Shown: positions 42,601 through 63,757, numbered from the stretch's first letter. The stretch is DNA of 64,000 bases from an uncultured Thermoanaerobaculia bacterium (GCA_964613915.1 CAZTIW010000014.1:30928-94927); one strand, 5' to 3'. The notes: generated by a model from the letters alone, not told the origin. Program-made: numbers and translations.

Positions 42601-42792
42601 TTCGCGGTCGGCCTCGAGGTGCCGACGCGGTCCGAGCGCGACCGGTGCAACGTCGCGCCGGCGCTGCTGGCGGGCGCCAACCCCCAGATCGCCACCCCGA
42701 CGCAGGCGGCCCCGCGGCAGATCGATGTCTCCGATGTCGTGCTGATGCTGCGGGGCTCGGTCGGCCTGCTCGTCTTCACCGATCCGGTCTGA
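39661..42792 (+). CDS. Secreted thrombospondin-type-3 (TSP3) calcium-binding repeat protein, 1043 aa, with dockerin-like C-terminal segment
   Basis: Signal peptide [25 protein letters not shown]; about 40 tandem copies of D[14 protein letters not shown]; C-terminal paired segments [19 protein letters not shown] and [16 protein letters not shown]. Confidence 0.85.
39730..42480 (+). repeat. Intragenic tandem array of about 75-bp TSP3 repeat units
   Basis: Recurrent GACGGCGACGGCGTGGGCGACGCCTGCGACAACTGCCCG-like units throughout the CDS. Confidence 0.8.
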
Positions 42793-43494
42793 TCAAGTTT
42801 CGGACGCTGCCTCGGCGCTCGGGCAGAGGGGCGCGAGTTCGCACTGGCCGCAGCGGGGCTTGCGAGACGTGCACGTCTCGCGGCCATGCAGCACCAGCGA
42901 GTGGCTGGTGACGGTCCACTTGTCGCGCGGCAGCACGTCCATGAGATCACGCTCGATGCGGACGGGATCCTCGTGCCGCGTCCATCCGAGGCGGCGCGCC
43001 AGGCGCGAGCAGTGCGTGTCCACGATGATCGCGGGCTGGGAGAACAGCGTGCCGCGCAGGACGTTCGCGGTCTTGCGGCCGACGCCAGGCAGCGCCGTCA
43101 GGGCGTCGAGATCCGTCGGCACCTCGCCGCCATGCCGCTCGCAGAGGGCCATCGCCATGCCGATGAGGTTCTTCGCCTTGCTGCGAAAGAACCCCGTCGA
43201 GTGGACGATGCTCTCGACGTCCGCCGGGTCCGCCTGCGCGAGACGAGCGGCTGTCGGATAGCGCGCGAAGAGCGCTGGCGTGACCATGTTGACGCGGGCA
43301 TCCGTGCACTGCGCCGACAGGATCGTCGCCGCCAGGAGCTGGAACGGCGTGTCGTGGTGAAGCGCCGTCGTCGCCGAAGCATGCAGGCGCTCGAGGATGG
43401 CGATGATCGCCGCGACGCGGGCCGGGTGCGTCGCGCCGCGCGATCGCGCGAGCGTCGGCACGAAGCGCACGCGGCGCCGGGGGCGAGCCTTCAC
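42793..43494 (-). CDS. nth: Endonuclease III (DNA glycosylase/AP lyase)
   Basis: HhH-GPD motif LPGVGRKTANV, catalytic region DTHCSRLARR, [4Fe-4S] loop C-X6-C-X2-C-X5-C; GTG start overlapping the PolX stop. Confidence 0.9.
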   Translation of the reverse strand: MKARPRRRVRFVPTLARSRGATHPARVAAIIAILERLHASATTALHHDTPFQLLAATILSAQCTDARVNMVTPALFARYPTAARLAQADPADVESIVHSTGFFRSKAKNLIGMAMALCERHGGEVPTDLDALTALPGVGRKTANVLRGTLFSQPAIIVDTHCSRLARRLGWTRHEDPVRIERDLMDVLPRDKWTVTSHSLVLHGRETCTSRKPRCGQCELAPLCPSAEAASET

Positions 43495-45239
43495 GCGCGG
43501 TCCCGCGTGAGGGCGCTGGCATCGCGCGTGTTCAGGACGTGCTCCGGCCCGAGTCTCGCCTTGCGAGCGATGTCCACGCCGTGGCGCAGGAAGTCGAGCT
43601 CGCTCACGCGGTGGGCGTCGGGGTTGATGCAGGCGAGGACGCCGGCGTCGGGGAGCCGGCGCGCCTGCCGCCAGTCCATGTCCAGCCTGTTGGGCCAGGC
43701 GTTGATCTCGATGGCCACGTCGTTCTCGCGGCAGGCGCGCAGCACGGCGTCCAGATCGAATCCGAACCCCTCGCGCTTCAGGAGGAGCCGTCCCGTGAGA
43801 TGGCCGATCACGCGCGTGCGGGGATCGGAGGCGGCGCGCACGAGCCGGCGCGTCATCTCGGCTTCCGTCATGCGGAACTGCGAATGGACCGACGCGATGA
43901 CGAAGTCGAAGGCGTCGAGGACCTCGTCCGGGTAGTCCAGCGAGCCGTCGGCCAGGATGTCGGACTCGACGCCGCGGAGGATCCGGATGGTGAACCGCGA
44001 TCGCAGCGCGTCGAGTTCCTCGGCCTGCGCGGCGACGCGCTCGATGCTCATGCCGTTCGCGTAGGCCGCCGTGCGCGAGTGATCCGAGATGCCGACGTAC
44101 TCGTGGCCGCGTTCCTGGGCGCCGGCGATCATGTCGGCCAGCGTGTCGCGGCCGTCGCTCCACGTCGAGTGGACGTGCAGGATCCCGCGCAGGTCGGCGA
44201 GCTCGACCAGGCGCGCCGTCTTCGCGGGCGCGTCGTCCACGTCCGAGGGCTCCTCGCGGATCTCGGGCGGCAGGTACGGCAGGCCCAGCTCGCCGAGAAT
44301 GGCCGCCTCGTCATCGCTTCGGATCAGGCGCTCCGCCGCGCCCGACCCGTCGTCGCCGAAGAGGCCGAACTCGTTGAGCTTCATGCCGCGGCTGCGCGCG
44401 CGCGCCCGCAGGGCCTGGTTGAATTCCTTGCTGCCCGTGAAGTGCAGCAGGGCCGCGCCGCGCTGCGCCGGCGACACGACGATGAGATCCGCCTGCACGC
44501 CCGCGTCGAGCCGCACGCTGCAGCGGTCCTCCCCGGACGACACGACGGAGGTCACGCCGGGCAGCCGCGTGAACGCCGCGACCACGGCGCCGGGGTTGTC
44601 CGACGTCGCGAGCAGGTCCACGTCGCCGATCGTCTCGCGGCGGCGGCGCAGCGAGCCCGCCACGTCGGCCGTCTCCACGCCGGGAAGGCCGCGCAGGGCC
44701 GCGATCAGGTCGGCGGCGATGGACTCGGCTTGCGGGATCAGGCGGCGCGAACGGTTGCGCCTCGCGAACTCGATCCCCTCGAGGATCGTGGCTTCGGATC
44801 TGGCGCCGAAGCCGGTCAGCTCGCGCACGCGGCCCTGCCGGCACGCGTCTTCGAGCTCATCGAGGCTCGCCACGCCCAGGTCCCTGCAGAGCGCCATCGC
44901 CTTGCGCGGACCCAGGCCGGGGATCGTCTCGATCTCGGAGAGACCCGGCGGGAGCCGCGCGCGCAGCTCGTCGAGGTATCGCAGGCCGCCGGTGCGCCAG
45001 AGCTCGGTGGCCTTCTCGACCAGCGCCTTGCCGAAGCCCTTCTGGGCCGCGAGCTCGCCCGAGGCGATCATCTCGCCGAGATCGCCCTCCATCGTTTCGA
45101 GGGCGCGCGCGCCGTTGACGTAGGCGCGCGCCTTGAACGGGTTCTCGCCGAGGGCCTCGAGCATCTCGGCGATCGTCCGGAACGCGTCGGCGACATCCTG
45201 TCGATCCAGCGGGGGAGGCGCGCCGGTGGAGGCCTCCAT
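43491..45239 (-). CDS. DNA polymerase X family protein with C-terminal PHP phosphoesterase domain
   Basis: Pol-beta-like N-terminus with HhH (IPGLGPRKA); PHP domain start HVHSTWSDG; start set at MEASTGAPP, Arg/Ser-rich leader excluded. Confidence 0.85.
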   Translation of the reverse strand: MEASTGAPPPLDRQDVADAFRTIAEMLEALGENPFKARAYVNGARALETMEGDLGEMIASGELAAQKGFGKALVEKATELWRTGGLRYLDELRARLPPGLSEIETIPGLGPRKAMALCRDLGVASLDELEDACRQGRVRELTGFGARSEATILEGIEFARRNRSRRLIPQAESIAADLIAALRGLPGVETADVAGSLRRRRETIGDVDLLATSDNPGAVVAAFTRLPGVTSVVSSGEDRCSVRLDAGVQADLIVVSPAQRGAALLHFTGSKEFNQALRARARSRGMKLNEFGLFGDDGSGAAERLIRSDDEAAILGELGLPYLPPEIREEPSDVDDAPAKTARLVELADLRGILHVHSTWSDGRDTLADMIAGAQERGHEYVGISDHSRTAAYANGMSIERVAAQAEELDALRSRFTIRILRGVESDILADGSLDYPDEVLDAFDFVIASVHSQFRMTEAEMTRRLVRAASDPRTRVIGHLTGRLLLKREGFGFDLDAVLRACRENDVAIEINAWPNRLDMDWRQARRLPDAGVLACINPDAHRVSELDFLRHGVDIARKARLGPEHVLNTRDASALTRDRA

Positions 45240-45243
45240 GGGC

Positions 45244-46443
45244 TCAGGGCGACGGGGCGGCCGCGCGGAGCGGCCGCGTGGCGACGGTCTCGGCGACCTC
45301 GAGCCGGAGCAGGTCGGGATCGCTCGCGTCGAAGCGCAGCCAGGCGAGGCCCTCCGGCACCGGCGTGAAGTAGCGCTCGGGGAACGTCCACGCGCCACCC
45401 TCGCGCACGGCGAGCAGCCCCCACGTCGAGTCGAGACCGGAGGGGCGGGACTCGTCCACCACGACGAGGGCCTCGGTGACGCCGCCCCGGTCGCGCGCGT
45501 CCGTGACCCGGATCCACGTGCCGGCTTCCGGCGGCGCCGGGCGCCCCAGCGAGGTGACGGCGCCCGTGCGCGGATCGGCGGCGATCAGGTCGGTCATCGC
45601 CGCCGTGCCGATCGTGCGCGGGGCGATGAGGAGCCGATCGGCCCCGCCGAAGATCTGCCGCGTGGAGAGAGTCCAGCGGAGATCCGGGCGATCGCCGGCG
45701 AGTTCGACGCGCGCCCACGCCTTGCCATCGGCGGTCGCGACCAGGGCATCCTCGAGCAATCCGCTCTCGAGGGGCGTCACGCGCACTTCGGGCTTGCGCG
45801 GCGCCTCGAGAGGCTCGGGCACGCGGTTGAAGCGGCTGCCGCGGCCGACCCGGGCATGGTCCATCGTGGCCCGGGGCATGATCGCGAGCATGCCCGCCTC
45901 GCTGCCGATCCCGCGCGCCTTCTCGCGGGCGGCGAGGTTCCTCCAGAGGTTCTCGTCGAACGGCTCGACATCCACGTGCATGGCCGCGGCGGTGCCGCGC
46001 GCATCGCCCCACGCGCGAACGCGCCACTCGGCGCCGGGCTCGGCGGCCTCCACGCGGCGCAGGAGCGACGCATCGGCTGCGAGAGGAATGTGGACCTCGC
46101 CCGTGGCCGTCTTCAGTCGCGGCAGGGGGAGGTCCTGGGGCCGGTAGAGCGACATCCAGACCGCCGTGCGCGCGTCGAGGTGCGGCTGCAGCACGCGTCC
46201 GGCCGGGATGGGCGAGCGCTCGTCCGTGTCAGCCCAGCCGAGAGCGCGTCGTTCCTCTCGGGAGTCGCGCGGGGCCGGGTCCGGCGTGGCCGTGCCGCCG
46301 GGAGGAACGAAGACCGGGGTCGCGGGGCGGGCCGGCGCTTCGGCGGCTCGCGCCGGAAGCGGAGCCGTCGCGGCGGCGATCAGCAGGGCGCAGGGAAGAA
46401 GACGAAGCAGCATGAGCCAAAGCCTAGCGCGGCACGGCCGCAA
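45244..46443 (-). CDS. Secreted hypothetical protein
   Basis: Signal peptide LLRLLPCALLIAAATAPLPARA; start is either the non-ATG codon at 46443 or the ATG at 46413. Confidence 0.5.
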   Translation of the reverse strand: MRPCRARLWLMLLRLLPCALLIAAATAPLPARAAEAPARPATPVFVPPGGTATPDPAPRDSREERRALGWADTDERSPIPAGRVLQPHLDARTAVWMSLYRPQDLPLPRLKTATGEVHIPLAADASLLRRVEAAEPGAEWRVRAWGDARGTAAAMHVDVEPFDENLWRNLAAREKARGIGSEAGMLAIMPRATMDHARVGRGSRFNRVPEPLEAPRKPEVRVTPLESGLLEDALVATADGKAWARVELAGDRPDLRWTLSTRQIFGGADRLLIAPRTIGTAAMTDLIAADPRTGAVTSLGRPAPPEAGTWIRVTDARDRGGVTEALVVVDESRPSGLDSTWGLLAVREGGAWTFPERYFTPVPEGLAWLRFDASDPDLLRLEVAETVATRPLRAAAPSP

Positions 46444-48978: not shown

Positions 48979-51192
48979 TCACCATGCCAGCAGCTGGCGC
49001 AGCGCGGGCTCGATCTTCTCGCGCGTGGGCAGGAAGGCCTTCTCGAGCGGCTGCGCGAACGGCACGGGCGTGTCGAGGCCGCCCAGCCGCATGACGGGCG
49101 CGTCCAGCGCCTCGAACGCGTGCTCGCCGATGAACGCGGCGATCTCGCCGCCGAAGCCGCCCGTCAGCGTGTCCTCGTGCAGCACGAGCGCGCGATGCCG
49201 CTCGCGCACGCTCGCGAGCACCGCGTCGCCGTCGAACGGCATCAGCGTGCGCAGGTCGAGCACGCCGACCTCGCCGCCGCCCGCCGCCGCCAGCACGTCG
49301 GCGGCCGCGATGGCCTCGTGCACCATCCACCCGTACGTGATGATGACCGCGTCGCCGCCCGGCCGGCGCAGAGCCGCGCGCCCGAGCTCCGTCACGACGT
49401 CGCCGGCGGGCAGCACGGCCTTCTGCCGGCGGTAGAGGTACTTGTGCTCGAGGTACAGCACGGGGTTGTCGTCACGGATCGCGGCGACCAGCAGCGCGAG
49501 CGCGTCCTCGGCCGTCGCTGGCGCGACGACCTTCAGGCCCGGCTGGTGGATGAACCAGGCCTCGGGGTTGCGCGAGTGGAACGGCGCGCCGCCGATGTTG
49601 CCGCCCGCGGGCAGCCGCACGACGAACGGCAGCGGCGTGCCGGTGCGATAGTGCCAGGTGGCGGCATTGTTGACGATCTGGTTGAAGCCGCACGTCACGA
49701 AGTCCGCGAACTGCATCTCCGCGACGGGCCGCAGCCCCATGAGCGCCGCGCCGATGCAGGCGCCGATGATGCCCGACTCGGCGATCGGCGTGTCCACGAT
49801 GCGATCGGCCCCGAACTCGTCCAGGAACCCGTGCGTGATCTTGAACGCGCCGCCCATGACCGCGATGTCCTCGCCGATCAGGAACACGCGCTCGTCGCGC
49901 CGCATCTCGTCGCGCAGGCCTCGCGAGATGGCCTGCAGGTACGTGGACTCGCCCGCCTGCGCCGCCGCCGTCGCCGTGAACCCGTCGCCCATCGGCGCGT
50001 TGAAGCGGGCCGCATCGCCGGCCGCCTTGCCGGCCGTCTTGCCGTCCGCCGCGCGCGCGCGATCGCGTGCGGGCCGCTTCGCGGCGGCGGATCCCGCCGG
50101 TCCGCCCGGCGCCTTTCGGTGCGCACGAACGGGCTGGCCGGCGAGCCCCGGCACGCCCGGCACGTCGCGCCCGCGCGAGGGATGCCCCTCTTCCGACCAG
50201 CGCCCCCACGAGGCCGTGTCGGCGGCCGGGGGTTCGAGCGCCGTCGCGCGCGCGAGCGCCGCGTCGAGCGCGGCCTCGGCGCGCGTCGCGATCGCCGCGT
50301 CGCGCGTCTCGTCGAGAATCCCGCGCGCCAGGAGGGTGGCTCGCATGCGCGCCAGCGGCTCGCGGCGGCGGCCGTCCTCGAGGACGCTCTTCGGGACGTA
50401 CTCGTGCGCGTCGGCCTCCGAGTGTCCGCGCAGGCGCAGGGCACGCCCCTCGATGAGCGACGGCCCGTTGCCCGCGCGCGCGTGCGCGACCGCGCGCCGC
50501 ACCGCGAGGTACATCGCGATCACGTCCGTGCCGTCCACCGTCTCAGCGGGGATGCCATAGCCCGGGCCGCGCGCGGCGAGCTCGCCGCAGGCGAACTCGC
50601 CCTCGTTCGGCGTCGAGTACGCGTAGAGGTTGTTCTCGACGACCAGGATGACGGGGAGCTTCAGCACGGCGGCCATGTTGAGCCCCTCGTGGAAGTCTCC
50701 CAGGGCGGTCGCGCCGTCACCCGTGAAGCTCAGGCAGACGCCGGTCTCGCCGCGCGAGCGCATCGCGAGGGCCGTCCCGTTCGCGACGCAGAGCTGCGTG
50801 CCCAGGTGCGAGATCATGGCGAAGATGCGCCGGTCGAGCACGTCGTGGTGGAGCCCCGAGTCGCGCCCGGCCGTGGGCCCCGCCACGCGCGCGAGGAGCT
50901 GCGCGAGGATCGTGTCCAGCGCGTCGCCGTGGACCAGGCGCGCGCCGAGGCCGCGGTGCATCGGGAAGAGCGCGTCGCCGTCGGCGAGCGCGTAGGCCGA
51001 GCCGCACGAGATGCCCTCGTTGCCTTCCTGCGAGTAGACGCCGCCGTAGACGCGTCCCTGCCGGTAGAGCGCCTGCATCCGGCGATCCACGAGGCGCGTC
51101 AGGACCATGGTCTCGTACAGGTCGACGAGCTGCGCGTCGCTCAGGCCGTGGTCATGCCGCGGCAGGAGCGGCGTCGCGTCGTCAGCGCTCAC
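48979..51192 (-). CDS. 2-oxoacid dehydrogenase E1 component, fused alpha-beta subunits in one 737-aa polypeptide
   Basis: N-terminal TPP-binding alpha-like half, low-complexity linker, then transketolase-like beta half (RVFLIGEDIAVMGGAFKITHG). Confidence 0.85.
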   Translation of the reverse strand: MSADDATPLLPRHDHGLSDAQLVDLYETMVLTRLVDRRMQALYRQGRVYGGVYSQEGNEGISCGSAYALADGDALFPMHRGLGARLVHGDALDTILAQLLARVAGPTAGRDSGLHHDVLDRRIFAMISHLGTQLCVANGTALAMRSRGETGVCLSFTGDGATALGDFHEGLNMAAVLKLPVILVVENNLYAYSTPNEGEFACGELAARGPGYGIPAETVDGTDVIAMYLAVRRAVAHARAGNGPSLIEGRALRLRGHSEADAHEYVPKSVLEDGRRREPLARMRATLLARGILDETRDAAIATRAEAALDAALARATALEPPAADTASWGRWSEEGHPSRGRDVPGVPGLAGQPVRAHRKAPGGPAGSAAAKRPARDRARAADGKTAGKAAGDAARFNAPMGDGFTATAAAQAGESTYLQAISRGLRDEMRRDERVFLIGEDIAVMGGAFKITHGFLDEFGADRIVDTPIAESGIIGACIGAALMGLRPVAEMQFADFVTCGFNQIVNNAATWHYRTGTPLPFVVRLPAGGNIGGAPFHSRNPEAWFIHQPGLKVVAPATAEDALALLVAAIRDDNPVLYLEHKYLYRRQKAVLPAGDVVTELGRAALRRPGGDAVIITYGWMVHEAIAAADVLAAAGGGEVGVLDLRTLMPFDGDAVLASVRERHRALVLHEDTLTGGFGGEIAAFIGEHAFEALDAPVMRLGGLDTPVPFAQPLEKAFLPTREKIEPALRQLLAW

Positions 51193-52805: not shown

Positions 52806-54008
52806 CTACCACACCGCGTAAAACCGCAGGTCCGTTCCGCTCCCCACATCGGGATCACCCAGCGTCGTCGCCGCCGCCGCACCGTCGAGCACGCTCCACG
52901 GGCCGTTCGCGACGTCCGAGCGCTCGACGAGCCACGGCGCGCGCGCCCCTGTCCACGAGAGCACGACATCGCTTCCCGAGCGTCGCGCGCGCAGGTCCAC
53001 CGGCGTGAGAAACCACGGCCGTGCCGTCGGATCCGTCCGGTAGAATGCCGACAGGAGCGAGGACACCCTCATGCGGCCCGCGGGAGAGGGATGCGTGCCG
53101 TCGGGCCCGAGATCCGCGCACTCCCACACGAGCCCATCCGATCGCGGTGTCATGCCATCCGCCCACAGGTAGGGCCCCCACAGGAGCCATGGCGACTCGA
53201 CCGGTCCGAGCGCGGCATCGGGATTGAGCGCGGGATCGCCGTCGAGCTGATCCTCGATCAGCCAGCGAAACGAGAAGCCCTCCTCGAACGCGTACGGCTC
53301 GGGATTGAGCGTGGTCGTGGCGTAGCCCGCGTAGATGCGGCTGCTCACGTGCGCGAGCCGCAGGTTCGGGAAGTGATCGCGCAGAAGCGCGACGATCTCG
53401 CGCAGCCGGTCGAGCATCTCGAGCGCATGAGCGGGAAACGCGCCGAAGCTGGCAGGCTGCCGCCGCGCGAGCTTGATCCACGCAACCTGCACTTGCCGAG
53501 GCGTCAGCCCCGCCACCGCGAGCCGTCGATCGCACTCGGCCCACACGTCCGAGGCGGGATCCGCCCAGTTGCCCGCCTCGCGCCCGCCTTGCGCGAGATC
53601 CACGATGCGCAGCCGCGGATGAAGCTCGGGATCGCCAGCCTGCTGCGTGATGAACGTGGAAAACTCCTGCGTCGTGTTCGACATCCCGATGGACGCGAGA
53701 ACGATGACGCCCGAAGGCGACGGCTGTCCGCTCGCGTCGAGCGGCACGATGCCGCGACGCGCAAGGAGCAGAGTGGCCTCGACGTGCGATGCCGGCGCGA
53801 AGTTCACGCCGCCGGGGTACAACCCCCCGGGCTCGCCGAGATGCCCCGCGCCGGGATCGCTGAGGGGGATGAAGCCGACGGAGGTCTGCGCGCAGTCCTG
53901 GGCGCGGGCGGGGGTTGCTAGGCCGAGCGAGGCGACGGTGATGGCGAGCGTGGCGGGGGTCAGCCGCGCGAGGATGCCGGGACGAACGGCTGGGCGGGAC
54001 GAGAGCAT
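52806..54008 (-). CDS. Secreted hypothetical protein
   Basis: Start set at MLSSRPAVRPGILARLTPATLAITVASLGLATPARA (signal peptide); protein-like composition. Confidence 0.5.
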   Translation of the reverse strand: MLSSRPAVRPGILARLTPATLAITVASLGLATPARAQDCAQTSVGFIPLSDPGAGHLGEPGGLYPGGVNFAPASHVEATLLLARRGIVPLDASGQPSPSGVIVLASIGMSNTTQEFSTFITQQAGDPELHPRLRIVDLAQGGREAGNWADPASDVWAECDRRLAVAGLTPRQVQVAWIKLARRQPASFGAFPAHALEMLDRLREIVALLRDHFPNLRLAHVSSRIYAGYATTTLNPEPYAFEEGFSFRWLIEDQLDGDPALNPDAALGPVESPWLLWGPYLWADGMTPRSDGLVWECADLGPDGTHPSPAGRMRVSSLLSAFYRTDPTARPWFLTPVDLRARRSGSDVVLSWTGARAPWLVERSDVANGPWSVLDGAAAATTLGDPDVGSGTDLRFYAVW

Positions 54009-54059
54009 GACGGCGGACTCCACGCGGAACGTAGCGCCGGGGGGCGGCGGGAGGCAAGG

Positions 54060-54125
54060 GCAGGGCGCTTGACGGGCATGCAAGGGAGGCGTAGCGTCGG
54101 TTCTTGCTTGTTACACGACGTAACT
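54060..54125 (+). promoter_or_regulatory. Candidate promoter/operator upstream of the rhs gene
   Basis: TTGACG-N17-TAGCGT sigma70-like spacing, then a locally AT-richer stretch with GTTAC-N5-GTAAC inverted repeat and duplicated TTGCT. Confidence 0.25.
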
Positions 54126-54182
54126 TGCTATGCGGTCGCGCGCCAGGCTGTGGGAGGCACGCGAGGGACTGGAGGTGAGGTG

Positions 54183-57100
54183 ATGCCCGTGGCGATGCGT
54201 TGGCGCGGCATGCTCGTTCTGCCGATCGTTGGCATGGTTCTTGCCCCCCCCTCCGCGCTCGCAGGATGGCCCGAGGGACACGTGCAGGTTCAGGTGGAGA
54301 AACCCTGTCCCGTGGGTCCCAGTCGCTCAGGTGTTGGCCTCGGTGACGGGTCGCTGACGCTCGACTTTCCGTTCGTCCTCGTCCCGCAGGCGCCTGGACC
54401 GGTTGTCTTCTCCTTGCAGTACGCCAGCGGAGCGGACAACCCCGGGACGTACGGCACGCGGCTGAACCTGCGCGTCCGGACGGAGAAGCGAACGGACGCG
54501 TGCCCGGGGTTCTCGCCGGCGTCGGACTTCGTTCCGCGAGCGGTGGATGCCGCGGAGGTCAACTTCAACACATCGCCGGGCGATCAGCGCGCCGTGGGCT
54601 TCGGCGTCCGAAAGTCAAACAACGGCGGCTCCTCGGAGGCCTGCAACGTCTCTCGATCGAGTGAGATGCCATTCCCTTCCAGCAACTTGGTTCGAGGGGG
54701 AGGACTGCCGTCGGACTGGTGCCCGGGCGGCCCCGTCGGTGGCCACGGCTGCGTGTCCGACATGGAAGCCGTGGTCACGCTGCCGCTGCGACTCTCGGAT
54801 CCCGGCGATCCAGGAGCGCAGATGGCCTATCAGCGGAAGGCGCCTGGCCAGCCTGACTGTCCACCGCCGGTGCCGAATGAGTTTCCGGCGGATCGCGGGG
54901 TCTACAGCATCAATGCGGGGGCGACGCTTCGATTCGACTCGCCCGCGTACTCAAGGAACGACTACAGCCACGACGACAGGCAGTCCGACGACCCGTGCGA
55001 GCAGTTCCTCTACCTCGAGAAGCGGCCTGACGAGACCATCGCGCGCCTCGGCGTGAACTGGACTCACTCGTTCGCATGGAGCCTGACGGAATATAGCGTT
55101 GGCACGAGGCAGTTCGTTGCAGTGAGGTCGCCGCGCGGGAGCGTGAGCCTGTACGAGCGGCCGGCGGGACTGGCTCTCAACCAGGAACTCCCGCTTCGTC
55201 CCTCGGCAGGCTGTTCGTGCCAATCGGCGCGGCTCTTCTGGACTAGGCGCTCGTTCGCTCCTCCCGGGATCGGCGTGAGCTTCTTCGCCTACGAGCTCGT
55301 GGCCGAAGACGCTTCACGCATGGTCTTCACGGAGTTCAGCGTCTTCGAGGGGGGACAGCTTCGCGCCCCGGCAGGTCGCCTCGTTCGTCTCGAGGACAAC
55401 GATGGCCAGAGTCCCATCGCCCTCACGTACGACACGAACGGCGACCTGGCCCGCGTCTACGATGCAGCGGGCTTCCACGTGGAGCTGCAGTACGCGGAGA
55501 CCCCAAGCGGGCGACGGCTCGAGCGGCTCGTCCTGCCGGGCGGGCGGCAGGTCTCGCTGGGCTGGCTGGCGGGCAAGCTCGCTTCGCTGCGCGACCCCGT
55601 TCATGTCGCTCAGAACCTTCCCGGCTACACGTTCGCCTACGGCACGGGCTTGAGTTCCGAGGACATCACGTGCCGCACGTCGCCTGACGGCGAGATTCAT
55701 CGGTACACGTACATCACCGATCCTGCGGATCCCAACGCCGGCCGGCTCAAGACGGCCGAGATCGTGGACAGCTGCGAGGCTACCGAATCGAAGAACACGC
55801 TGACCTACACGTACTCGCGCCCCGACTCCGTGGACGGCGAGCGCTGGGTGAAGATCACGCCTCACTTGGTGACCACGGCACCCATCATCAAGAACGTTCT
55901 GAACGCCGACGGCCATCTCATCCGCACGGAAGAGATCTGTGCCGAGACGAGCGCCGAGGCTGTTGCGCGATCCTGTCCGGTGGTGCCCGAGATCAGTCCG
56001 CACCCGGTCGTTGCGATGGTGAGCTCCACCAGCTACGACGAGTTCGGACAAGCGCGCGCCGTGCGCACGTACCCCGTGGTGCTCCCTCCCTACGACCCGT
56101 CGGATCCGCCGAGCCCAACGAGCCTCGATGCCACGCACTTCTCGGTATCGTGCGTGACGCGCGATGCGTCGCAAGGCAAGCCCATCACGTTGTTCGGGTC
56201 AACATGCATTGATACCTCGACCGTGCCGCCGACGGCGGTGGATGGCTGGACGGATGAAGCCTGCGACTGCGATCTGGCGCAGCTCAATGCCGCCCCCGTT
56301 CCGACGGTCGCGCCCATCGGCACGCAGGTGAGCTGGGAGTTCGATGTCCAGGGTGCGGGTCCGACGCCGATCCTCGTCACGTACGATCGGCCCCGCCGCG
56401 TGATAGCGCCGAGCCAGCGGACAGACCCCGGGCAGGGCGCGCCTGGAGCCAGCGCCAAGGGCGTGCGGATCTTCTACTACGAGACGGTGGGGTATCCCAT
56501 CCGTTCCCACATCTCGGACATCTGCCCGCCCGAAGTGGACTCACCCGAGCCCGGGTTGGGCTGCGAGCACTTCGAGTACAACTTCTACACGATCCACGGC
56601 GGCGACGTGGTTCAGCTTGCGAGCCGGACGGACGGCTCGGGGAACACGTGGACCTACGAGTACGATCCGCTGACGCATCTCCTGTCGCGGATCACCGCTC
56701 CGTCGTCGGACGGACAGCAGTTCGTGACGAACTTCCAGTACGGCACCGACGGACTCTTGAACTACGTCGAGGCGCCGGGCGGTCTCGTGACCGCGTTCCT
56801 GCGCAACGAGCGCGGACAGATCGCGATCGAGTCCCGCCCGGGCGCGGCGCCGCCGGAGCGCATGCAAGTCCGCTACACGTACACGCCCGGGGGCAAGCTG
56901 CGGCGCATCGCGGATGAGAGCCGGGAGTCGCAATCCTCCCCGGGGAAGTACGTCGCGTGGTGGATCAGTTATGGCGGACCGGCGGTGTTCAGCGACTGGG
57001 GTGCCGAGCCCGCACAGTTCGAACGACTCCCCCGTGCGCTGCGGCGCGGCCCGGCCACTCTGGGCGGGCCGTTCGCCACGATTGACGCGGACGAGCTTCA

Positions 57101-59282
57101 ACCTGATGAGCTGGCCGGAACGGTTTACGAGAGCTGGGACTACGACAGCAACCTCCAGCCCGTGGCGACCTACTACGGCCCTCCGTTCACCTTCAGGCGC
57201 GCACTCGTGACGAAGCGCGATGGCTTCGGTGCCGCACTCGACCTGGTCATCATGGGCCAAGGAGATTCGCCCGCCTTTTTAGAGCGAACCTGCATCGAGT
57301 CCGACCCGCGGACCGGCCTGCCACGCTCGGTCTCGTTCAGCCTGGCCCCGCCCGACGAGGATGACCTCAACTGCCCCCTGACGAACGGCGCCATGCGGCA
57401 CTCCTTCACCTACGATCGCGCAGGCCGCGCCTCCTCCACGAGCATGCAGTGGGACTTCGGAGCCGAAGGCGCGGGACTGCACCAGACCTGCCGCCAGCAT
57501 GATCCCTGGGGTCGGCTGACTCAGGTCGTGGACGAGGTGACGCTCGCGCCCACTCCCGGCTGCGATCCGATCTCGGCCTTCCGGACGACCGACGTCGCTC
57601 ACGATGACGCGGATCGTCCCTGGCTCGTGACGCTGTCCAACGCGGGGCTCCCCTACGCCGACTACCAGGTCGAGTACGACAACAACCAGCGCGCCTTCAA
57701 GTGGACCGAGGCACAATCCCGCGAGTACCTGGCGATGTCGTATCGTCCTGACGGTCTGCTGACGAACATCACGCGCGGTCGCCCGCACTCGGGTGGCTCG
57801 TCCTGGCTCGACACGAAGTTCACGCAGGACCTGCGGTACGATGCCCGGGGGTTTGTCATGCGCCTCGAGCAGCATCGCCTGCCGTACCTGTGGCCGTCGG
57901 GGGACACGACGTGGTTCTACACGCATGACGACGCGGGCCGGCTCACGGGGGCAGCGCTCGATCCCGTGGACTGGCCGTCGCTTCCGAACATCGTGGACGA
58001 GTCGTACGCCTACCTGCCCTCCAATCCCTGGAACCTCGCGTCCATCACGGACAACCTGACCAGCACGACGACAGCGTTCCCGACCGATGACGAGGATCGC
58101 ATCCAGACCCCGGATCGCGAGTATCACGCGTTCATCGGAGCGCTGAAGAGGGAGAACGGCGCGGGAGGCCAGACGCGGCGATACCGCTGGGATGTCGCGG
58201 GCCGCCTCATGGCCGTGCTGGAGGGCACCGACGCGACGGGGTACGCCGGGACGGCCTACTCGTACGATCCCTGGAACCGCCTCGTCGCCGAGCGACCGAT
58301 CACCACGGCGACGGCCACGGGCCAGCCCGTCTCGGCCGGCTCGCCGACGATTCACCTGTGGAGCGGATGGCAGCAGGTGGGGGAGGTGGAGTCGTTCGCG
58401 TCGGCGCCGGCGTTCGCGTGGAGCGACGGGCCGATGGGCCTCGCGGGCATCAAGCGCGAGGGCTCGTCACACGAGAGGCTGTTCTCGGACGCGCAGGGGT
58501 CGGTGAAGTACGGCTTCGCAGACGATCCCGTGTACACGCCGTTCGGCAAGGTGGTGAGCGGCACGCTGAGCACGGCCAAGGGCTTCCAGGGCCAGGAATG
58601 GCGCGACGAGGCGCGGCTCTACTACATGCGCCACCGCTGGTACGACCCCGCCAGCGCGCGCTTCCTGTCGCGCGACCCCGTGCGCACGGGCGCGATCCAT
58701 AACTTCGCGTTCGCGATGGATAGCCCGGTGATGATGGGGGATCCGATGGGGTTGGATACCTTCGTTCTCATTGCTCATGCAGGCGGGGGCGGCGACAAGA
58801 AGGGCTCGTTTGGCCATGCTGCGCTTGTGACGTGGGATGAAACCGGGGCCGGAGGGTTCGTCGACCACATGGGCCAGAACTCCATGTGGGATCCCAGTCC
58901 GAGCATTTCCATTCCGCACGCTGATCGCGTCTCTCGGTTCGTCAGCAACTATGTTCGAGGCAACCACCGAGACGTGAGCATCTTCGAACTCGATCTGAGT
59001 GCTGAGGTCGAGGCTGCATTGCGCAATGCTATCTCCGCTCGCGCCGGTGCCCCGGAACCGAAAAGGCTCTTCACCAACAACTGTACAGATGTCGTGACAG
59101 ACGTGCTCCATCAGGCAGGCGTGAGCGAGCGAGTGCGGATATTAGGTCCGTTTCCACTGTTTCTATTCACGATGAGAGTACCGCTCGGTGGAGGGCACGG
59201 AATCAGCTGGCCGGATAGGCTCCACTCCTCTCTTCTGAAGGCTCCGTTCACACGTAGCTACACGCGAATTGAGGCCCAGTGA
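54183..59282 (+). CDS. RHS/YD-repeat polymorphic toxin, about 1700 aa, with signal peptide and variable C-terminal toxin tip (CT1)
   Basis: ATG at 54183 preceded by GGAGG; signal MPVAMRWRGMLVLPIVGMVLAPPSALA; many YD-type repeats; core end LYYMRHRWYDPASARFLSRDPV followed by the DPMGL boundary; divergent 175-aa tip. Confidence 0.9.
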   Translation: MPVAMRWRGMLVLPIVGMVLAPPSALAGWPEGHVQVQVEKPCPVGPSRSGVGLGDGSLTLDFPFVLVPQAPGPVVFSLQYASGADNPGTYGTRLNLRVRTEKRTDACPGFSPASDFVPRAVDAAEVNFNTSPGDQRAVGFGVRKSNNGGSSEACNVSRSSEMPFPSSNLVRGGGLPSDWCPGGPVGGHGCVSDMEAVVTLPLRLSDPGDPGAQMAYQRKAPGQPDCPPPVPNEFPADRGVYSINAGATLRFDSPAYSRNDYSHDDRQSDDPCEQFLYLEKRPDETIARLGVNWTHSFAWSLTEYSVGTRQFVAVRSPRGSVSLYERPAGLALNQELPLRPSAGCSCQSARLFWTRRSFAPPGIGVSFFAYELVAEDASRMVFTEFSVFEGGQLRAPAGRLVRLEDNDGQSPIALTYDTNGDLARVYDAAGFHVELQYAETPSGRRLERLVLPGGRQVSLGWLAGKLASLRDPVHVAQNLPGYTFAYGTGLSSEDITCRTSPDGEIHRYTYITDPADPNAGRLKTAEIVDSCEATESKNTLTYTYSRPDSVDGERWVKITPHLVTTAPIIKNVLNADGHLIRTEEICAETSAEAVARSCPVVPEISPHPVVAMVSSTSYDEFGQARAVRTYPVVLPPYDPSDPPSPTSLDATHFSVSCVTRDASQGKPITLFGSTCIDTSTVPPTAVDGWTDEACDCDLAQLNAAPVPTVAPIGTQVSWEFDVQGAGPTPILVTYDRPRRVIAPSQRTDPGQGAPGASAKGVRIFYYETVGYPIRSHISDICPPEVDSPEPGLGCEHFEYNFYTIHGGDVVQLASRTDGSGNTWTYEYDPLTHLLSRITAPSSDGQQFVTNFQYGTDGLLNYVEAPGGLVTAFLRNERGQIAIESRPGAAPPERMQVRYTYTPGGKLRRIADESRESQSSPGKYVAWWISYGGPAVFSDWGAEPAQFERLPRALRRGPATLGGPFATIDADELQPDELAGTVYESWDYDSNLQPVATYYGPPFTFRRALVTKRDGFGAALDLVIMGQGDSPAFLERTCIESDPRTGLPRSVSFSLAPPDEDDLNCPLTNGAMRHSFTYDRAGRASSTSMQWDFGAEGAGLHQTCRQHDPWGRLTQVVDEVTLAPTPGCDPISAFRTTDVAHDDADRPWLVTLSNAGLPYADYQVEYDNNQRAFKWTEAQSREYLAMSYRPDGLLTNITRGRPHSGGSSWLDTKFTQDLRYDARGFVMRLEQHRLPYLWPSGDTTWFYTHDDAGRLTGAALDPVDWPSLPNIVDESYAYLPSNPWNLASITDNLTSTTTAFPTDDEDRIQTPDREYHAFIGALKRENGAGGQTRRYRWDVAGRLMAVLEGTDATGYAGTAYSYDPWNRLVAERPITTATATGQPVSAGSPTIHLWSGWQQVGEVESFASAPAFAWSDGPMGLAGIKREGSSHERLFSDAQGSVKYGFADDPVYTPFGKVVSGTLSTAKGFQGQEWRDEARLYYMRHRWYDPASARFLSRDPVRTGAIHNFAFAMDSPVMMGDPMGLDTFVLIAHAGGGGDKKGSFGHAALVTWDETGAGGFVDHMGQNSMWDPSPSISIPHADRVSRFVSNYVRGNHRDVSIFELDLSAEVEAALRNAISARAGAPEPKRLFTNNCTDVVTDVLHQAGVSERVRILGPFPLFLFTMRVPLGGGHGISWPDRLHSSLLKAPFTRSYTRIEAQ
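57768..58754 (+). repeat. Copy A (inside full-length rhs) of a 987-bp near-identical direct repeat
   Basis: Identical ORF translations recur with a constant offset of 2142 bp (57793-58059 vs 59935-60201; 58192-58506 vs 60334-60648); ends exactly at the DPMGL codons. Confidence 0.9.
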
Positions 59283-59872
59283 GTTCCCGGAAAGCGAGGA
59301 CCCAGGTGGCGCTGCGGCTGCGCGGCGTCGTCGCTGCTCTCATCGCCCGGCCCTGGAGTGTCATCCTCATCGTTGCCGGATGCCTCGCACTGTGGACGGC
59401 GACTCACGTCCTTTGCCACGCGAGGAGTCTGAACCGTCAACTCGCGGACTTTGGCGATCTCCTGAACACTCGGTACTGCCTTGGAGCAATCGACATTGCT
59501 GCGCTCGATCCTGCGCGCATCTCTGGTGACATGGTGGGCGCCTGCCGTCTCATTGACGTGTACGGTCATCAAGTCTCGCTACACGTGTGGTCAGACGGCA
59601 CTAAAGTGCTTTGGTTGCTCGTGTCGCCCGGACGGGATGGCATGCTGGACTGGCCGCTCGAGGTCTATCAGCAAGAGGCCACGGAGATGCAAGGGGATAT
59701 CGGTCGTGACATTCTCGGCGACTTTGATGCTGACATCGTCATCTCCGAGCGCAAGCTCATTCAGTTCCCTAACAAGGTGGATGCCACGATCGCTGATGTC
59801 CTCGGAATCCCCATCGCAAGCCCAGCGCGCTCTCGAAGGACGCTCCGCCCGAGTCAGCGTGAACCGCATTAA
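59279..59872 (+). CDS. Putative cognate immunity protein for CT1
   Basis: GTG start overlapping the rhs stop (GTGA); N-terminal TM helix; local GC is lower than the flanks. Confidence 0.5.
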   Translation: MSSRKARTQVALRLRGVVAALIARPWSVILIVAGCLALWTATHVLCHARSLNRQLADFGDLLNTRYCLGAIDIAALDPARISGDMVGACRLIDVYGHQVSLHVWSDGTKVLWLLVSPGRDGMLDWPLEVYQQEATEMQGDIGRDILGDFDADIVISERKLIQFPNKVDATIADVLGIPIASPARSRRTLRPSQREPH

Positions 59873-59909
59873 TAAGTGGCGCCACTCAGGCCCCCGCTAT
59901 CTGAATACC

Positions 59910-60896
59910 ATCACGCGCGGTCGCCCGCACTCGGGTGGCTCGTCCTGGCTCGACACGAAGTTCACGCAGGACCTGCGGTACGATGCCCGGGGGTTTGTCA
60001 TGCGCCTCGAGCAGCATCGCCTGCCGTACCTGTGGCCGTCGGGGGACACGACGTGGTTCTACACGCATGACGACGCGGGCCGGCTCACGGGGGCAGCGCT
60101 CGATCCCGTGGACTGGCCGTCGCTTCCGAACATCGTGGACGAGTCGTACGCCTACCTGCCCTCCAATCCCTGGAACCTCGCGTCCATCACGGACAACCTG
60201 ACCAGCACGACGACAGCGTTCCCGACCGATGACGAGGATCGCATCCAGACCCCGGATCGCGAGTATCACGCGTTCATCGGAGCGCTGAAGAGGGAGAACG
60301 GCGCGGGAGGCCAGACGCGGCGATACCGCTGGGATGTCGCGGGCCGCCTCATGGCCGTGCTGGAGGGCACCGACGCGACGGGGTACGCCGGGACGGCCTA
60401 CTCGTACGATCCCTGGAACCGCCTCGTCGCCGAGCGACCGATCACCACGGCGACGGCCACGGGCCAGCCCGTCTCGGCCGGCTCGCCGACGATTCACCTG
60501 TGGAGCGGATGGCAGCAGGTGGGGGAGGTGGAGTCGTTCGCGTCGGCGCCGGCGTTCGCGTGGAGCGACGGGCCGATGGGCCTCGCGGGCATCAAGCGCG
60601 AGGGCTCGTCACACGAGAGGCTGTTCTCGGACGCGCAGGGGTCGGTGAAGTACGGCTTCGCAGACGATCCCGTGTACACGCCGTTCGGCAAGGTGGTGAG
60701 CGGCACGCTGAGCACGGCCAAGGGCTTCCAGGGCCAGGAATGGCGCGACGAGGCGCGGCTCTACTACATGCGCCACCGCTGGTACGACCCCGCCAGCGCG
60801 CGCTTCCTGTCGCGCGACCCCGTGCGCACTGGCGCGATCCATAACTTCGCGTTCGCGATGGATAGCCCCGTGATGATGGGGGATCCGATGGGGTTG
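59910..60896 (+). repeat. Copy B (orphan rhs fragment) of the same 987-bp direct repeat
   Basis: As copy A; two single-base differences seen, both synonymous in the rhs frame (ACG/ACT Thr near 58688/60830; CCG/CCC Pro near 58737/60879). Confidence 0.9.
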
Positions 60897-61439
60897 CTGC
60901 CGGCATGGATGGAGGCCGAACTCGCGCAGGCGTATGGCAATGGTTCGTTCGCTGAAAAGGAGGCGACGTTGAGGCGCGCTGTCGCGTTGCTTCGACAGTG
61001 CGCTGCGCCAGACTATCGGAAGACCGTGGGGAACGCGCTGGGTGCGGTCAACGTTCGGGCAATGCTAGCTCGGCCACCTCAGTCGGGCGGCAGTGGGCGC
61101 GCAGGATTCACCAATCCGCACACGGGTGACGTGACGATTACTGCGTTGGCCTTCCGTTCACTTCCGCCGCAGGCAGACGGGAGGGTTAGTTCTCGAGTTC
61201 CGGTAAAGAATGGCACTTGGTCTCCAGCCGGCTACACGCCTCCGATTGGTTCCGCCACGAAGTGGGATGGTCTTCTGATAGCGATCGCCCACGAAGGCCA
61301 GCACGTTGCGGATGTGCTGAGCCGGCAGGGACCTCCCGGTCCGCCGCTGCAAACCTTCGATCCGCGTCACGTTGAGATCCACGAGACCGCTCACGCCATC
61401 GTCGAATCGATGTACTACGCGGGCTGCAACTGTGACTAG
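59910..61439 (+). other. Orphan rhs C-terminal cassette: about 330 codons of rhs core fused to an alternative toxin tip (CT2) with HExxH motifs; no own start
   Basis: In-frame continuation of the RHS core from ITRGRPHSGG to DPMGL, then unrelated 180-aa tip containing AHEGQH and IHETAH; the 5-prime part of the long ORF (59481-59909) overlaps the immunity gene out of frame. Confidence 0.7.
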
Positions 61440-61449
61440 GAGTTCCTTC

Positions 61450-62151
61450 ATGAGGGTACTCGTGCTGGGAATGAGCTTCGCCCTGGTCACGGCGCAACAC
61501 GTGGAGTGCGACGCGAGGGCAGGCTCGGCATCGCTTCGAGAGTCTCGTGCGGTGTTCGTGTCGGATCCGAGGTCACCTAGCAACAGGACAAGACTTGCGG
61601 GCATTCAGTGGCCCGAGGATCCGGACGCGGCCTGTGTCGCCAAGCGCTTTGCCGATGCACTTCTCGCGCGAGAGGGAGCGCGCCCGGTGCGGCGCGGCAA
61701 ACGCCAAGCGGCGCGCATCGAGTTGACCGTGCTCTGGCTGCCCGGGGGGCATCACGGGTACGACGAGTACTGGGATCCCGAGCGCGAGGAGACGCGGGTT
61801 GACTTCGCGCAAGTCTTGGTCGCGACGGGCGCTGCGGTAGTGGACCCCAAGCCGCTCCAGACGTCGAGGAGGCAAGTGTGTGGCCTCCGGATCGGCGAGG
61901 AAATTGCCGAGCGCGGGTATCGCGGAGCATGGGCTCCTGCACTGCAAATGGGTTCGTGCGGAGACCTTTCTGTCCAGTGGTCAATCTTCTTGGGAGAAGA
62001 GAATGCGCAAGCCCTTGTCGTCTGGATTCGGGACGAACTCGCATGCCTCCCGGTGGCATGCGGAGGCGGGACGCCAGAATTCTGCGACGGCGAAATCGCT
62101 GATCTCGTTCGCCAACTGCACGAGCACGAGGAGGAAGGCCGCCGGCCATGA
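61450..62151 (+). CDS. Putative cognate immunity protein for CT2
   Basis: ATG at 61450 with AGGAG 8 nt upstream, 11 bp after the CT2 stop; Cys-containing 233-aa protein. Confidence 0.45.
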   Translation: MRVLVLGMSFALVTAQHVECDARAGSASLRESRAVFVSDPRSPSNRTRLAGIQWPEDPDAACVAKRFADALLAREGARPVRRGKRQAARIELTVLWLPGGHHGYDEYWDPEREETRVDFAQVLVATGAAVVDPKPLQTSRRQVCGLRIGEEIAERGYRGAWAPALQMGSCGDLSVQWSIFLGEENAQALVVWIRDELACLPVACGGGTPEFCDGEIADLVRQLHEHEEEGRRP

Positions 62152-62194: not shown

Positions 62195-63757
62195 ATGGTC
62201 TCCTTCGTCAGCCTGTTGTTCCTGTTTGGGATGTTCGCTTCATGCGCAGGCGCATGCTCGTGTCGCGTCTCCGCCAAGCGCGCTCAACCCAGTACGAGCG
62301 AGAGCCCCATGCCGCTGGCCGTGGCCTTGAAGCGTGCCGACCTCGTGACCCTCGGCACGCTTGACATGTCGCCCGAGAGTGACTGCGAGTCGGGCGTCGG
62401 ATTCCGAGTCGAGCGCATCCTGAAGGGCGATGGCCGCGACAGGGAGTCCGTGTGTCTGGGCGATGCTGTCTCGCGCGAGCGGCTTCCGATTCCATTCCTC
62501 GTCAGCGAGGGGAGCGTGCTCGCGCTTCTGCGCCGTGAGCGTCAGGCGACAGCGGTGGGACCGGCGACGTACACGCCAGTTCCGAATCTGGCGGGACTCA
62601 TGCCGCTGGACATCGTCGCGTTCTGCCCGGTCGTGTCGATCAGGCCCGATCAGATCGGAATCCCGGCCGGGTTCAACGGCATGTGGCTGCGGTACCCGGA
62701 TTTCTCTCCCGCTTTCGTGTTCATGACGACGCTCGTTGACATGGAGGAGGCCGTCAGGGGTGAGCGGCCCCGGATGCCGCCGAGCGCCGTGGAAGGGGAT
62801 CGGCCGGGCTTGCGGCGTCCTGCGGCTCCGGGCGGCGGGCCATTACAGGCGCGTCCGCCGCGGCGCGGCAACGTCGCGGGAGCGCGACAGCGAGCGAGCC
62901 CCCTCCTGAGTCACGCTCCGAGGCACGCTGGACTGTTCGCCGCCATCCTCCCCGAGGGAGTCGCGGCGCTCGGTGACGGGGCGTTCGCCATCGCGCATCG
63001 AGGGGGCGCGGCGGTGTCGGTGGGCGAGACGTTCGTGGACACGGCGGGCGATCCGGCGCCGCGCGAGGTCGGGCGGTTCGGGGGCTTCGGCGAGGACGAG
63101 TGCCGGTTCGTGCAGCCGGTGGACGTGGCTGGCGAGAGGTCGCGCGTGCGCGTGCTCGATCGCGTCCGCCGCGTGGTCGTCGAGGTGGACTTCAGTCAGG
63201 AGACGCCAACATGCCTTCGCGAGATCGTGCTGGCGGAGGTTCGCGATCCCGAGGCGGTCGAGGTGTCGCCCGACGGCGCGGTGCTCGTGCTGGACGCTGG
63301 CGAGAACGTCATCCGCGTGGTGCGGGATGGCGCGCTCACCGACAGGCGCATCGGAGCGTTCGGGCGGGGACGCGAGGGCATGAGCTGTCCGCATGATCTG
63401 GCGCTCGGCGCGGACGGGACGATCTACGTGGCCGATTCGGGCAACCGACGCATCCAGCGGTACCGGCTGTCGGATGGCGCATGCCTCGGGCCGTGGGGAA
63501 GCCACGGGAACGCGGCCGATCAGTTCATTGACCCCACCGGGGTTGCCATGAACGAGAACGGCGAGCTTCTCGTGGCCGATCGCTACGCGCATCGCATCCA
63601 GGTCTTCGATGTCGGCGCCGGGCGCGAGGAAGTGGCGCGACGCCTGGAGCTGCCCCCGCAGGTTCGGTATCCGACGCGGCTCGCGGTGCTGGCTGGAAAC
63701 CTCTGCGTCGTGACCTGCGCGCAGCCCTCCGAGGTGTGGGTGATGGCATGTCCGTGA
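62195..63757 (+). CDS. NHL-repeat beta-propeller lipoprotein
   Basis: Signal MVSFVSLLFLFGMFASCAGAC; C-terminal NHL-type repeats (DGTIYVADSGNRRIQRY, NGELLVADRYAHRIQVF). Confidence 0.7.
   Translation: MVSFVSLLFLFGMFASCAGACSCRVSAKRAQPSTSESPMPLAVALKRADLVTLGTLDMSPESDCESGVGFRVERILKGDGRDRESVCLGDAVSRERLPIPFLVSEGSVLALLRRERQATAVGPATYTPVPNLAGLMPLDIVAFCPVVSIRPDQIGIPAGFNGMWLRYPDFSPAFVFMTTLVDMEEAVRGERPRMPPSAVEGDRPGLRRPAAPGGGPLQARPPRRGNVAGARQRASPLLSHAPRHAGLFAAILPEGVAALGDGAFAIAHRGGAAVSVGETFVDTAGDPAPREVGRFGGFGEDECRFVQPVDVAGERSRVRVLDRVRRVVVEVDFSQETPTCLREIVLAEVRDPEAVEVSPDGAVLVLDAGENVIRVVRDGALTDRRIGAFGRGREGMSCPHDLALGADGTIYVADSGNRRIQRYRLSDGACLGPWGSHGNAADQFIDPTGVAMNENGELLVADRYAHRIQVFDVGAGREEVARRLELPPQVRYPTRLAVLAGNLCVVTCAQPSEVWVMACP

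Follow-up and report, generated by a model that had tools for sequence, protein, structure and literature searches.

We analysed a stretch of 64,000 nucleotides from an uncultured Thermoanaerobaculia bacterium (GCA_964613915.1 CAZTIW010000014.1:30928-94927), called the window below; positions are counted from its first letter. Between 54183 and 62151 lies a candidate Rhs polymorphic-toxin locus, in which an earlier note, made from the sequence alone, had recognized a full-length rhs gene and, directly downstream, a second and truncated copy of its core carrying another toxin tip. The two tips are named CT1 and CT2, and the small genes that follow them imm1 and imm2. The locus contains the following features:

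54183..59282, + strand: main rhs gene, 1699 amino acids (aa); open reading frame (ORF) with an ATG, an upstream GGAGG and RHS/YD profile matches
54183..54263, + strand: predicted Sec signal peptide MPVAMRWRGMLVLPIVGMVLAPPSALA/GW, first 27 residues, read from the sequence
57759..58754, + strand: repeat copy 1 (996 nt), made up of the final 332 core codons of the main gene; 99.5% identity with 59901-60896
58533..58754, + strand: Rhs repeat-associated core domain (RHRWYDPASARFLSRDP...DPMGL), predicted autoproteolytic boundary; TIGR03696
58755..59282, + strand: CT1, the tip of the main gene (175 aa plus stop); candidate acyl/lipid hydrolase of the permuted NlpC/P60 type
59279..59872, + strand: imm1, candidate CT1 immunity gene; 197 aa (GTG 59279) or 188 aa (GTG 59306)
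59901..60896, + strand: repeat copy 2, 332 codons forming the orphan core fragment; no signal peptide, ~1190 upstream codons absent
60897..61439, + strand: tip CT2, 180 aa plus stop; candidate metal-dependent hydrolase with two HExxH motifs
61438..61442, + strand: imm2 ribosome-binding site AGGAG, 7 nt before ATG 61450
61450..62151, + strand: imm2, candidate CT2 immunity gene, 233 aa; ORF and ribosome-binding site

The reading frame of the main gene is open from 54069 to 59282, and its start was assigned to the ATG at 54183, which has its GGAGG 7 nt on the 5' side. The 1699-aa product from this start is identical to a protein of the public collection that comes from the 101,984-bp NCBI contig (P0001). 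It consists, in this order, of a signal peptide, a divergent N-terminal region, a YD-repeat shell, the Rhs-associated core and CT1. The signal peptide shows a basic n-region, a hydrophobic core and an A-L-A cleavage motif, and the highest 15-residue hydropathy of the whole protein is found at residue 9. Pfam RHS_repeat (PF05593) matched the protein in 4 stretches with an E value of 4e-16 and NCBIfam YD_repeat_2x (TIGR01643) matched it with an E value of 2.8e-9, while YD-like motifs are spread over residues 540-1360 and the precomputed domain on the protein is TEN_YD-shell (PF25023). NCBIfam Rhs_assc_core (TIGR03696) aligned over its entire length (profile 1-76/76) to residues 1451-1524, ending at DPMGL, with an E value of 6e-18. 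The end of the core also aligns to the C-terminal core ends of solved Rhs proteins, for example Tse15 (8uy4); only the last ~60-190 core residues match these proteins, and the core is very divergent. By these sequence criteria the protein encoded at 54183..59282 is an Rhs/YD polymorphic toxin with a predicted cleavage. The RHS_repeat and TIGR03696 matches bear out the RHS/YD nature of the core, which the earlier note had left to profile searches, and the complete rhs gene, the DPMGL core end, CT1 and the small gene overlapping it by 4 bp all lie where that note had placed them.

Downstream of imm1, the end of the core is found a second time. Positions 57759-58754 and 59901-60896 form a direct repeat of 996 nt, at an offset of 2142, with 5 mismatches (99.5% identity). 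Three mismatches fall within the first 8 bases, and from 57767 on (988 nt) the copies differ just at 58688 and 58727, where both changes are third-position and synonymous; the repeat comprises 332 codons, 329 of them identical between copies. On the right, both copies end at the Leu codon of DPMGL; the left edge is equally sharp, and beyond DPMGL the two tips do not align to each other. Since the edge of this near-perfect 1-kb repeat falls on a functional protein boundary, a chance origin is ruled out. Copy 2 continues into CT2 in a frame of 512 codons (332 core codons plus CT2) free of stops and frameshifts. The earlier note had described a startless core copy of about 330 codons: its size holds at 332 codons, but it is not strictly startless, since its frame extends without a stop back to 59481 and a 526-aa product from a GTG at 59859 is annotated in the NCBI record. 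This GTG is the only in-frame start nearby; it lacks a Shine-Dalgarno sequence, and the frame beginning there shares 14 nt with the end of imm1. Upstream of 59901 the orphan frame has a non-coding pattern of codon-position GC, leaving coding there unsupported. The fusion of copy 2 to an unrelated tip, followed by a small gene with its own ribosome-binding site (AGGAG, ATG 61450), was found as claimed. By its sequence, 59901-61439 fits an orphan rhs-CT module, being 5'-truncated and sharing core homology with the main gene.

A scan for sigma-70 promoters returned 0 matches anywhere, including upstream of rhs, and is powerless at 70% GC; a scan for terminators gave two terminator-like matches, both inside the 5' end of rhs and fewer than in shuffles, and is likewise uninformative at this GC. 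The 28-nt gap between the imm1 stop and copy 2 contains a perfect 10-bp palindrome, GTGGCGCCAC (59876-59885), which is unique in the window. It was considered as a junction signature and rejected, as 22/100 shuffles give at least one match.

The composition of the locus changes at the borders of the tips, as seen from the GC content at third codon positions (GC3):

Housekeeping genes in the window: 0.85-0.96, most at least 0.9
Repeated core segment: 0.91
Rest of rhs: 0.82
CT1: 0.64
imm1: 0.69
CT2: 0.66
imm2: 0.71

The ORFs of CT1, CT2, imm1 and imm2 are all intact and show 3-base periodicity. By its lower GC3, each pair is a compositionally foreign module grafted onto a native-looking core, and such modules of a tip plus a small gene are the signature expected of polymorphic-toxin cassettes, as these putatively are. 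The immunity role of Imm1 and Imm2 was assigned by position and composition.

This organization matches the rhs-main / rhs-CT-orphan / rhsI layout that has been published (PMC3150448, PMC3967940, PMC4436062), in line with the earlier note, which had compared the locus to toxins with displaced reserve tips; Rhs loci generally carry orphan modules (PMC3150448, PMC4436062). We consider, with a probability of about 85%, that the locus is a chromosomal Rhs polymorphic toxin of the main gene plus orphan cassette type, the functions of its parts being those expected from the family. The closest parallel is STM0291/STM0292 of Salmonella Typhimurium LT2 (PMC3967940), where a full-length rhs with its tip and immunity gene is likewise followed by a truncated core with another tip and immunity gene. 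In both loci the shared core is the recombination substrate (here a predicted one) and the orphan lacks export signals. In LT2, recombination between main and orphan copies takes place across 522 bp at 95% identity and was selected in culture and in mice, and a prior duplication has been proposed to preserve rhsI-main (PMC3967940). The repeat described here is longer and better conserved, with 996 bp at 99.5%, which makes it an unusually good predicted substrate for tip switching. Unlike LT2, which has a PAAR/T6SS (type VI secretion system) context, the protein studied here has a predicted Sec signal peptide, the two candidate immunity proteins seem to reside outside the cytoplasm, the core is highly divergent and the host belongs to an uncultured high-GC lineage.

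We then looked at the two tips and their partners. CT1 contains the motifs FGH21AALV, FVD37H38 and LFTNNC110TDVV, so that His21 comes first, Asp37/His38 follow at +16/+17 and Cys110 lies at +89. Permuted NlpC/P60 enzymes were taken to have a His before the Cys, a polar residue 12-17 positions after the His and the Cys about 90-108 after it; CT1 shows this His-polar-Cys order and spacing, with a putative catalytic role for these residues. Against Pfam Lnb_N (DUF4105), CT1 gave E values of 1.5-2.5e-4 and 21.1-21.8 bits, for a cut-off of 22.2, and the match was stable on a sub-fragment; the best of 9 shuffled or reversed CT1 controls reached 6.7e-3. PLAAT3 reportedly uses His23/His35/Cys113 as catalytic residues; PDB 7zom served to check its sequence, including the Cys113 motif LTSENCEHFV. 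When CT1 is aligned locally with PLAAT3, the best alignment falls on the Cys (NC) motif, with a z of 1.9 that is not significant alone. CT1 had no match to PDB sequences at E <= 10, and a phmmer search with CT1 in 1.84 billion representatives recovered nothing but CT1 itself and four repetitive proteins, whose many weak matching stretches were judged spurious. Among permuted NlpC/P60 enzymes, DUF4105/Lnb is a relative of TseH, the triads being Asn66-His49-Cys148 in Lnb and Glu81-His64-Cys172 in TseH (PMC11573676). Tox-Act1 has His43/Cys151 and works in the periplasm, and its immunity protein is membrane-associated (PMC12994826). CT1 resembles these proteins by its His before Cys, a similar spacing, an 'NC' at the Cys and a seemingly membrane-associated immunity protein, and differs from them by being fused to an Rhs shell and by a profile match below threshold. 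Based on the Lnb_N match, the residue spacing and the predicted membrane anchor of Imm1 taken together, we put the chances at even that CT1 is a permuted NlpC/P60 Cys-His enzyme of the LRAT, TseH, Tox-Act1 or DUF4105 kind. A canonical apolipoprotein N-acyltransferase (LNT_N plus CN_hydrolase) is encoded at 36973-38748 on the - strand; with this canonical Lnt in the window, the Lnb_N-like CT1 would not be the housekeeping lipoprotein N-acyltransferase.

The imm1 frame is open over 59273-59872, the other two forward frames containing stops. Its GTG at 59279 sits in a GTGA that produces the 4-bp overlap with the rhs stop and has a GAGG 4 nt upstream; the alternative GTG at 59306 has a GAGGA 5 nt upstream, and the resulting 188-aa protein is the gene call made on a contig of the independent Logan assembly (L083, see below). 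In the NCBI record, imm1 is annotated as 76 aa only, from an ATG at 59642. This appears too short, because coding-type codon-position GC and 3-base periodicity extend over the whole frame and support 188-197 aa. The hydrophobic maximum of Imm1 lies at residues 19-33, and its N-terminus is a predicted membrane anchor or lipobox (IVAG/C26).

In CT2 the HExxH motif occurs twice, as HEGQH (residue 132) and as HETAH (residue 162), and four of the six histidines of the tip belong to these motifs. In shuffled sequences, the probability of at least one such motif was 0.7% and that of at least two was 1.5e-5. An HExxH of CT2 sits in a hydrophobic, zincin-like context (AIAHEGQHVADV). No zincin profile, Pfam (E <= 10), NCBIfam or PDB match was found at permissive thresholds, and the match to PDC-S32 of PADLOC (E 0.022) is insignificant. 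From its motifs, CT2 is most likely a metal-dependent hydrolase; we lean tentatively toward a peptidase, with some reserve, and CT2 is not filed as a member of a zincin family. Zincin-type Tox-MPTase tips have reportedly been described in polymorphic toxins. These and Tox-HopH1, which is mentioned in PMC12994826, share the HExxH with CT2, which has a second one 30 residues downstream. The 233-aa Imm2 is identical to a protein of the NCBI record (P0006), and its N-terminus is signal-peptide-like, with the hydrophobic maximum at residue 1. Both candidate immunity proteins look extracytoplasmic, and a seemingly exported Imm2 agrees with a target of CT2 in the envelope.

As for export, no PAAR, VgrG or other delivery domain was found in the Rhs protein at E <= 1, and the ORFs scanned in the 64-kb window and over the 3 kb downstream of it (Logan contig L082) included no T6SS gene. 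Judged by these predicted ORFs, the locus is, within the window, not of the T6SS-linked Rhs sub-type. Diderm markers, namely FadL, a BamB-like protein and the canonical Lnt, are present in the window; with a diderm host, a further step across the outer membrane would be needed for export of the Rhs protein. WapA of Bacillus subtilis and Streptococcus suis likewise combines a Sec signal, a polymorphic tip and a downstream immunity gene with the absence of a T6SS (PMC4436062, PMC12704120), but it is wall-associated in monoderm Firmicutes, in contrast to the diderm host considered here.

Altogether, the following mechanism can be proposed. The YD shell would enclose the tip, and the aspartyl-protease motif RHRWYDP...DPMGL would cut after its Leu, freeing the tip inside the shell, both steps being those expected from the family. 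The Rhs protein would be exported by Sec, and not as a PAAR/VgrG-loaded T6SS effector, and would carry its tip to neighbouring bacteria. There, CT1 may attack acyl or lipid bonds of the cell envelope and be neutralized by membrane-anchored Imm1, and CT2 may act in the envelope as a metal-dependent hydrolase neutralized by the signal-peptide-bearing Imm2. Salmonella Rhs shells mostly carry cytoplasm-acting toxins (PMC12994826). As it stands, the orphan would not be exportable, because the signal peptide and ~1190 shell codons are absent. Homologous recombination over the 996-bp repeat, as the earlier note had suggested, would delete 2142 bp, with CT1 and imm1, and put CT2 on the full-length gene; a prior tandem duplication would keep imm1, as proposed for Salmonella. 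Meanwhile, imm2 would be expressible on its own and would guard against kin already deploying CT2. A bolder version appears unlikely to us: a diderm would export an Rhs shell via Sec without a T6SS and thereby deliver two envelope-acting toxins, one from a new branch of permuted, lipid-targeting NlpC/P60 enzymes and the other with a new double-HExxH hydrolase fold, and against each there would be an immunity protein in the periplasm or membrane. If true, this would imply an undescribed route by which Rhs toxins pass two outer membranes, that of the producer and that of the target, perhaps with the help of NHL beta-propeller lipoproteins such as those encoded next to imm2.

Several points weigh against the polymorphic-toxin reading or its parts. 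CT1, CT2, Imm1 and Imm2 have no significant match in Pfam, NCBIfam, PADLOC or PDB, and the Lnb_N match of CT1 falls below the Pfam cut-off and covers residues 59-122 only, the Cys half. Pfam searches with sub-fragments of CT2, Imm1 and Imm2 gave nothing, word-based searches with both tips in 5.8 billion clusters gave no homologue, and tblastn of both tips against plasmids gave none. In these four collections nothing contradicts the earlier opinion that the tips fall outside the named families, the sub-threshold Lnb_N match being the exception, and the locus is not assigned to any toxin-domain family. Single-sequence AlphaFold models of CT1 and CT2 have a predicted local distance difference test score (pLDDT) of 38 each, too low for reading a fold. 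The tip-less Rhs protein found only itself at E <= 1e-10 among 8000 candidates scored, a cut-off too strict that hides weaker Rhs relatives; a scan of genome contigs with the Rhs protein gave no relative, and a 27-nt pattern of the core end scanned across metagenome contigs gave 0 matches. The signal-peptide and anchor calls for Rhs, Imm1 and Imm2 were made from hydropathy and motifs only, and the tip swap is predicted here from the repeat substrate. Finally, the DPRHVEIHE of CT2 resembles the C-terminal HxxxH of HNH colicin DNases. No profile supports an HNH/His-Me nuclease reading of CT2, which was disfavoured also because an exported Imm2 speaks against it: an immunity protein with a signal peptide would not fit a nuclease.

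The soundness of the tandem structure was examined with three contigs of the Logan assembly, an independent assembly of run SRR12901013, which match the window at 99.98-100% identity:

L001, 52125-57796: ends 30 nt past 57766, the last copy-1-specific base
L083, 58697-59938: begins 30 nt ahead of the copy-specific 58727 and ends 30 nt beyond 59908
L082: starts at 62046 and runs past the window end

If the locus were an artefact, the tips of two strains would have been stitched in series, which might be feared from a metagenome-derived contig, the more so as the interior 921 bp (57767-58687) are identical in both copies, so that short reads cannot phase them. We regard this as barely credible. 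A strain bubble would rejoin downstream of the tips, whereas CT1-imm1 exits into mid-core through the unique junction from the imm1 stop (59873-59908), and L083 carries this junction at 100% identity; misassembly is unlikely because a bubble would not create it. Moreover, copy-specific bases are present at both ends of the repeat, and the contigs end as they should if a k=31 graph branched where a two-copy repeat begins and ends (L-R-X-R-Y). As this graph has a single linear solution containing X, the tandem order is favoured over misassembly. The NCBI and Logan contigs are separate assemblies that may share the same reads, which also weighs on the reading. Exact copies of the proteins of the locus are confined to the NCBI contig and a single sequencing run, and look-ups of the exact products for full Rhs, 197-aa imm1, imm2 and a truncated CT2 fragment found none on record. 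Inside imm2, at 62040-62062, we observed an 11-bp inverted repeat with a 1-nt spacer (CGCATGCCTCC / GGTGGCATGCG); it coincides with the start of L082 and may account for this break in the assembly or point to a variable site.

The downstream neighbourhood of imm2 bears on a further alternative and is given here. Two NHL-repeat beta-propeller proteins and an FG-GAP/cadherin-like protein are encoded directly downstream of imm2, at the following places:

62195-63757 of the window: NHL / FG-GAP neighbour
L082 1703-3091 (about 63748-65136, past the window end): NHL / FG-GAP neighbour
L082 3088-5031 (about 65133-67076, past the window end): NHL / FG-GAP neighbour

The first NHL protein has a lipobox-like N-terminus (MFAS/C), and the NHL neighbours have faint TEN_NHL matches. 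In teneurins, NHL propellers accompany the YD shell. A Tc-toxin-like or teneurin-like YD protein, acting at the surface or against eukaryotes, with small genes unrelated to immunity, would fit these teneurin-type companions of a YD shell as well as the Sec signal, the missing T6SS context and the very divergent core. We nevertheless find it improbable. TcC-type toxins are not known to have immunity genes, and here each tip has its own compositionally matched small exported protein, with an orphan cassette in addition; an own small gene per tip and an orphan cassette are hallmarks of antibacterial polymorphic toxins (PMC4436062). Slightly less probable still is that the 526-aa ORF from GTG 59859 is translated by coupling to imm1, as a self-cleaving shell fragment that frees CT2 in the producer and serves as a regulator or suicide module. 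The ORF is open, the GTG overlaps imm1 and the autoprotease motif is intact; on the other hand, the missing Shine-Dalgarno sequence and the non-coding pattern upstream of the repeat speak against translation, a 332-residue piece cannot close a shell, the seemingly exported Imm2 would not protect the cytoplasm, and a cytoplasmic suicide or regulatory module of this kind has no known precedent. The rival with the most in its favour, which we still hold to be unlikely, takes the downstream fragment as an inert remnant of a past tip replacement, where only imm2 matters, kept as immunity against CT2-bearing neighbours, and CT2 is not under selection. The fragment indeed has no signal peptide, no Shine-Dalgarno sequence at its GTG and no evident promoter in a scan of low power, and orphan immunity genes are known to persist alone (PMC4436062). 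Yet the 512-codon frame is intact, the two internal differences of the repeat are synonymous, CT2 keeps its 3-base periodicity and both HExxH motifs, and for recombination, 996 bp at 99.5% are superior to the 522 bp at 95% that suffice in Salmonella (PMC3967940).

On the polymorphic-toxin reading, the layout is already known from Salmonella and E. coli, and the two tips are without recognizable relatives. The locus would be a clean main-plus-orphan example outside Enterobacteria, in an uncultured high-GC lineage, with two tips and two candidate immunity proteins that have no detectable relatives among billions of proteins. It does not overturn current understanding and is rather a catalogue entry with a few testable leads: two homologue-less tips, likely envelope targets and T6SS-independent export. 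Expression of these tips and candidate immunity proteins might uncover new activities directed at the envelope, such as that of an Rhs-borne relative of the recently described Tox-Act1 phospholipases. Given the Sec signal and the seemingly exported immunity proteins, it may also be asked how a diderm would deliver an Rhs shell without a T6SS spike.

The rest of the window is chromosomal and housekeeping in character, with lipA, lipB, 2-oxoacid dehydrogenase E1 and E2, ferredoxin, PolX, PdxS, CstA and M1/M17 peptidases, and it is without tRNA genes. The best matches of LipA, 63-66% identical, come from metagenome-assembled genomes labelled Proteobacteria or Deltaproteobacteria and from the myxobacterium Nannocystis pusilla, so that by LipA the host would be an uncultured lineage, perhaps close to Myxococcota; no Rhs was found at the closest LipA loci (L002-L004). 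Divergent from rhs, at 52806-54083 on the - strand, lies a gene for a protein of 400-425 aa with a signal-peptide-like N-terminus and no family match. The 100-175 bp between this gene and rhs have the lowest GC content in the vicinity and are the probable site of both promoters. At 39661-42792 (+ strand), a 1043-aa protein has 11 thrombospondin type-3 repeats (E 2e-124) and is probably a calcium-binding surface protein. The gene at 48979-51192 (- strand) fuses E1 alpha and beta into 737 aa through an Ala/Gly/Arg/Pro-rich linker and is part of the string lipA - E2 - E1 - lipB - ferredoxin. A Dam-like N6-adenine DNA methyltransferase is encoded at 20971-22122 (- strand), with no restriction partner recognized among the ORFs scanned, and a PolX-PHP DNA polymerase at 43491-45398 (- strand).

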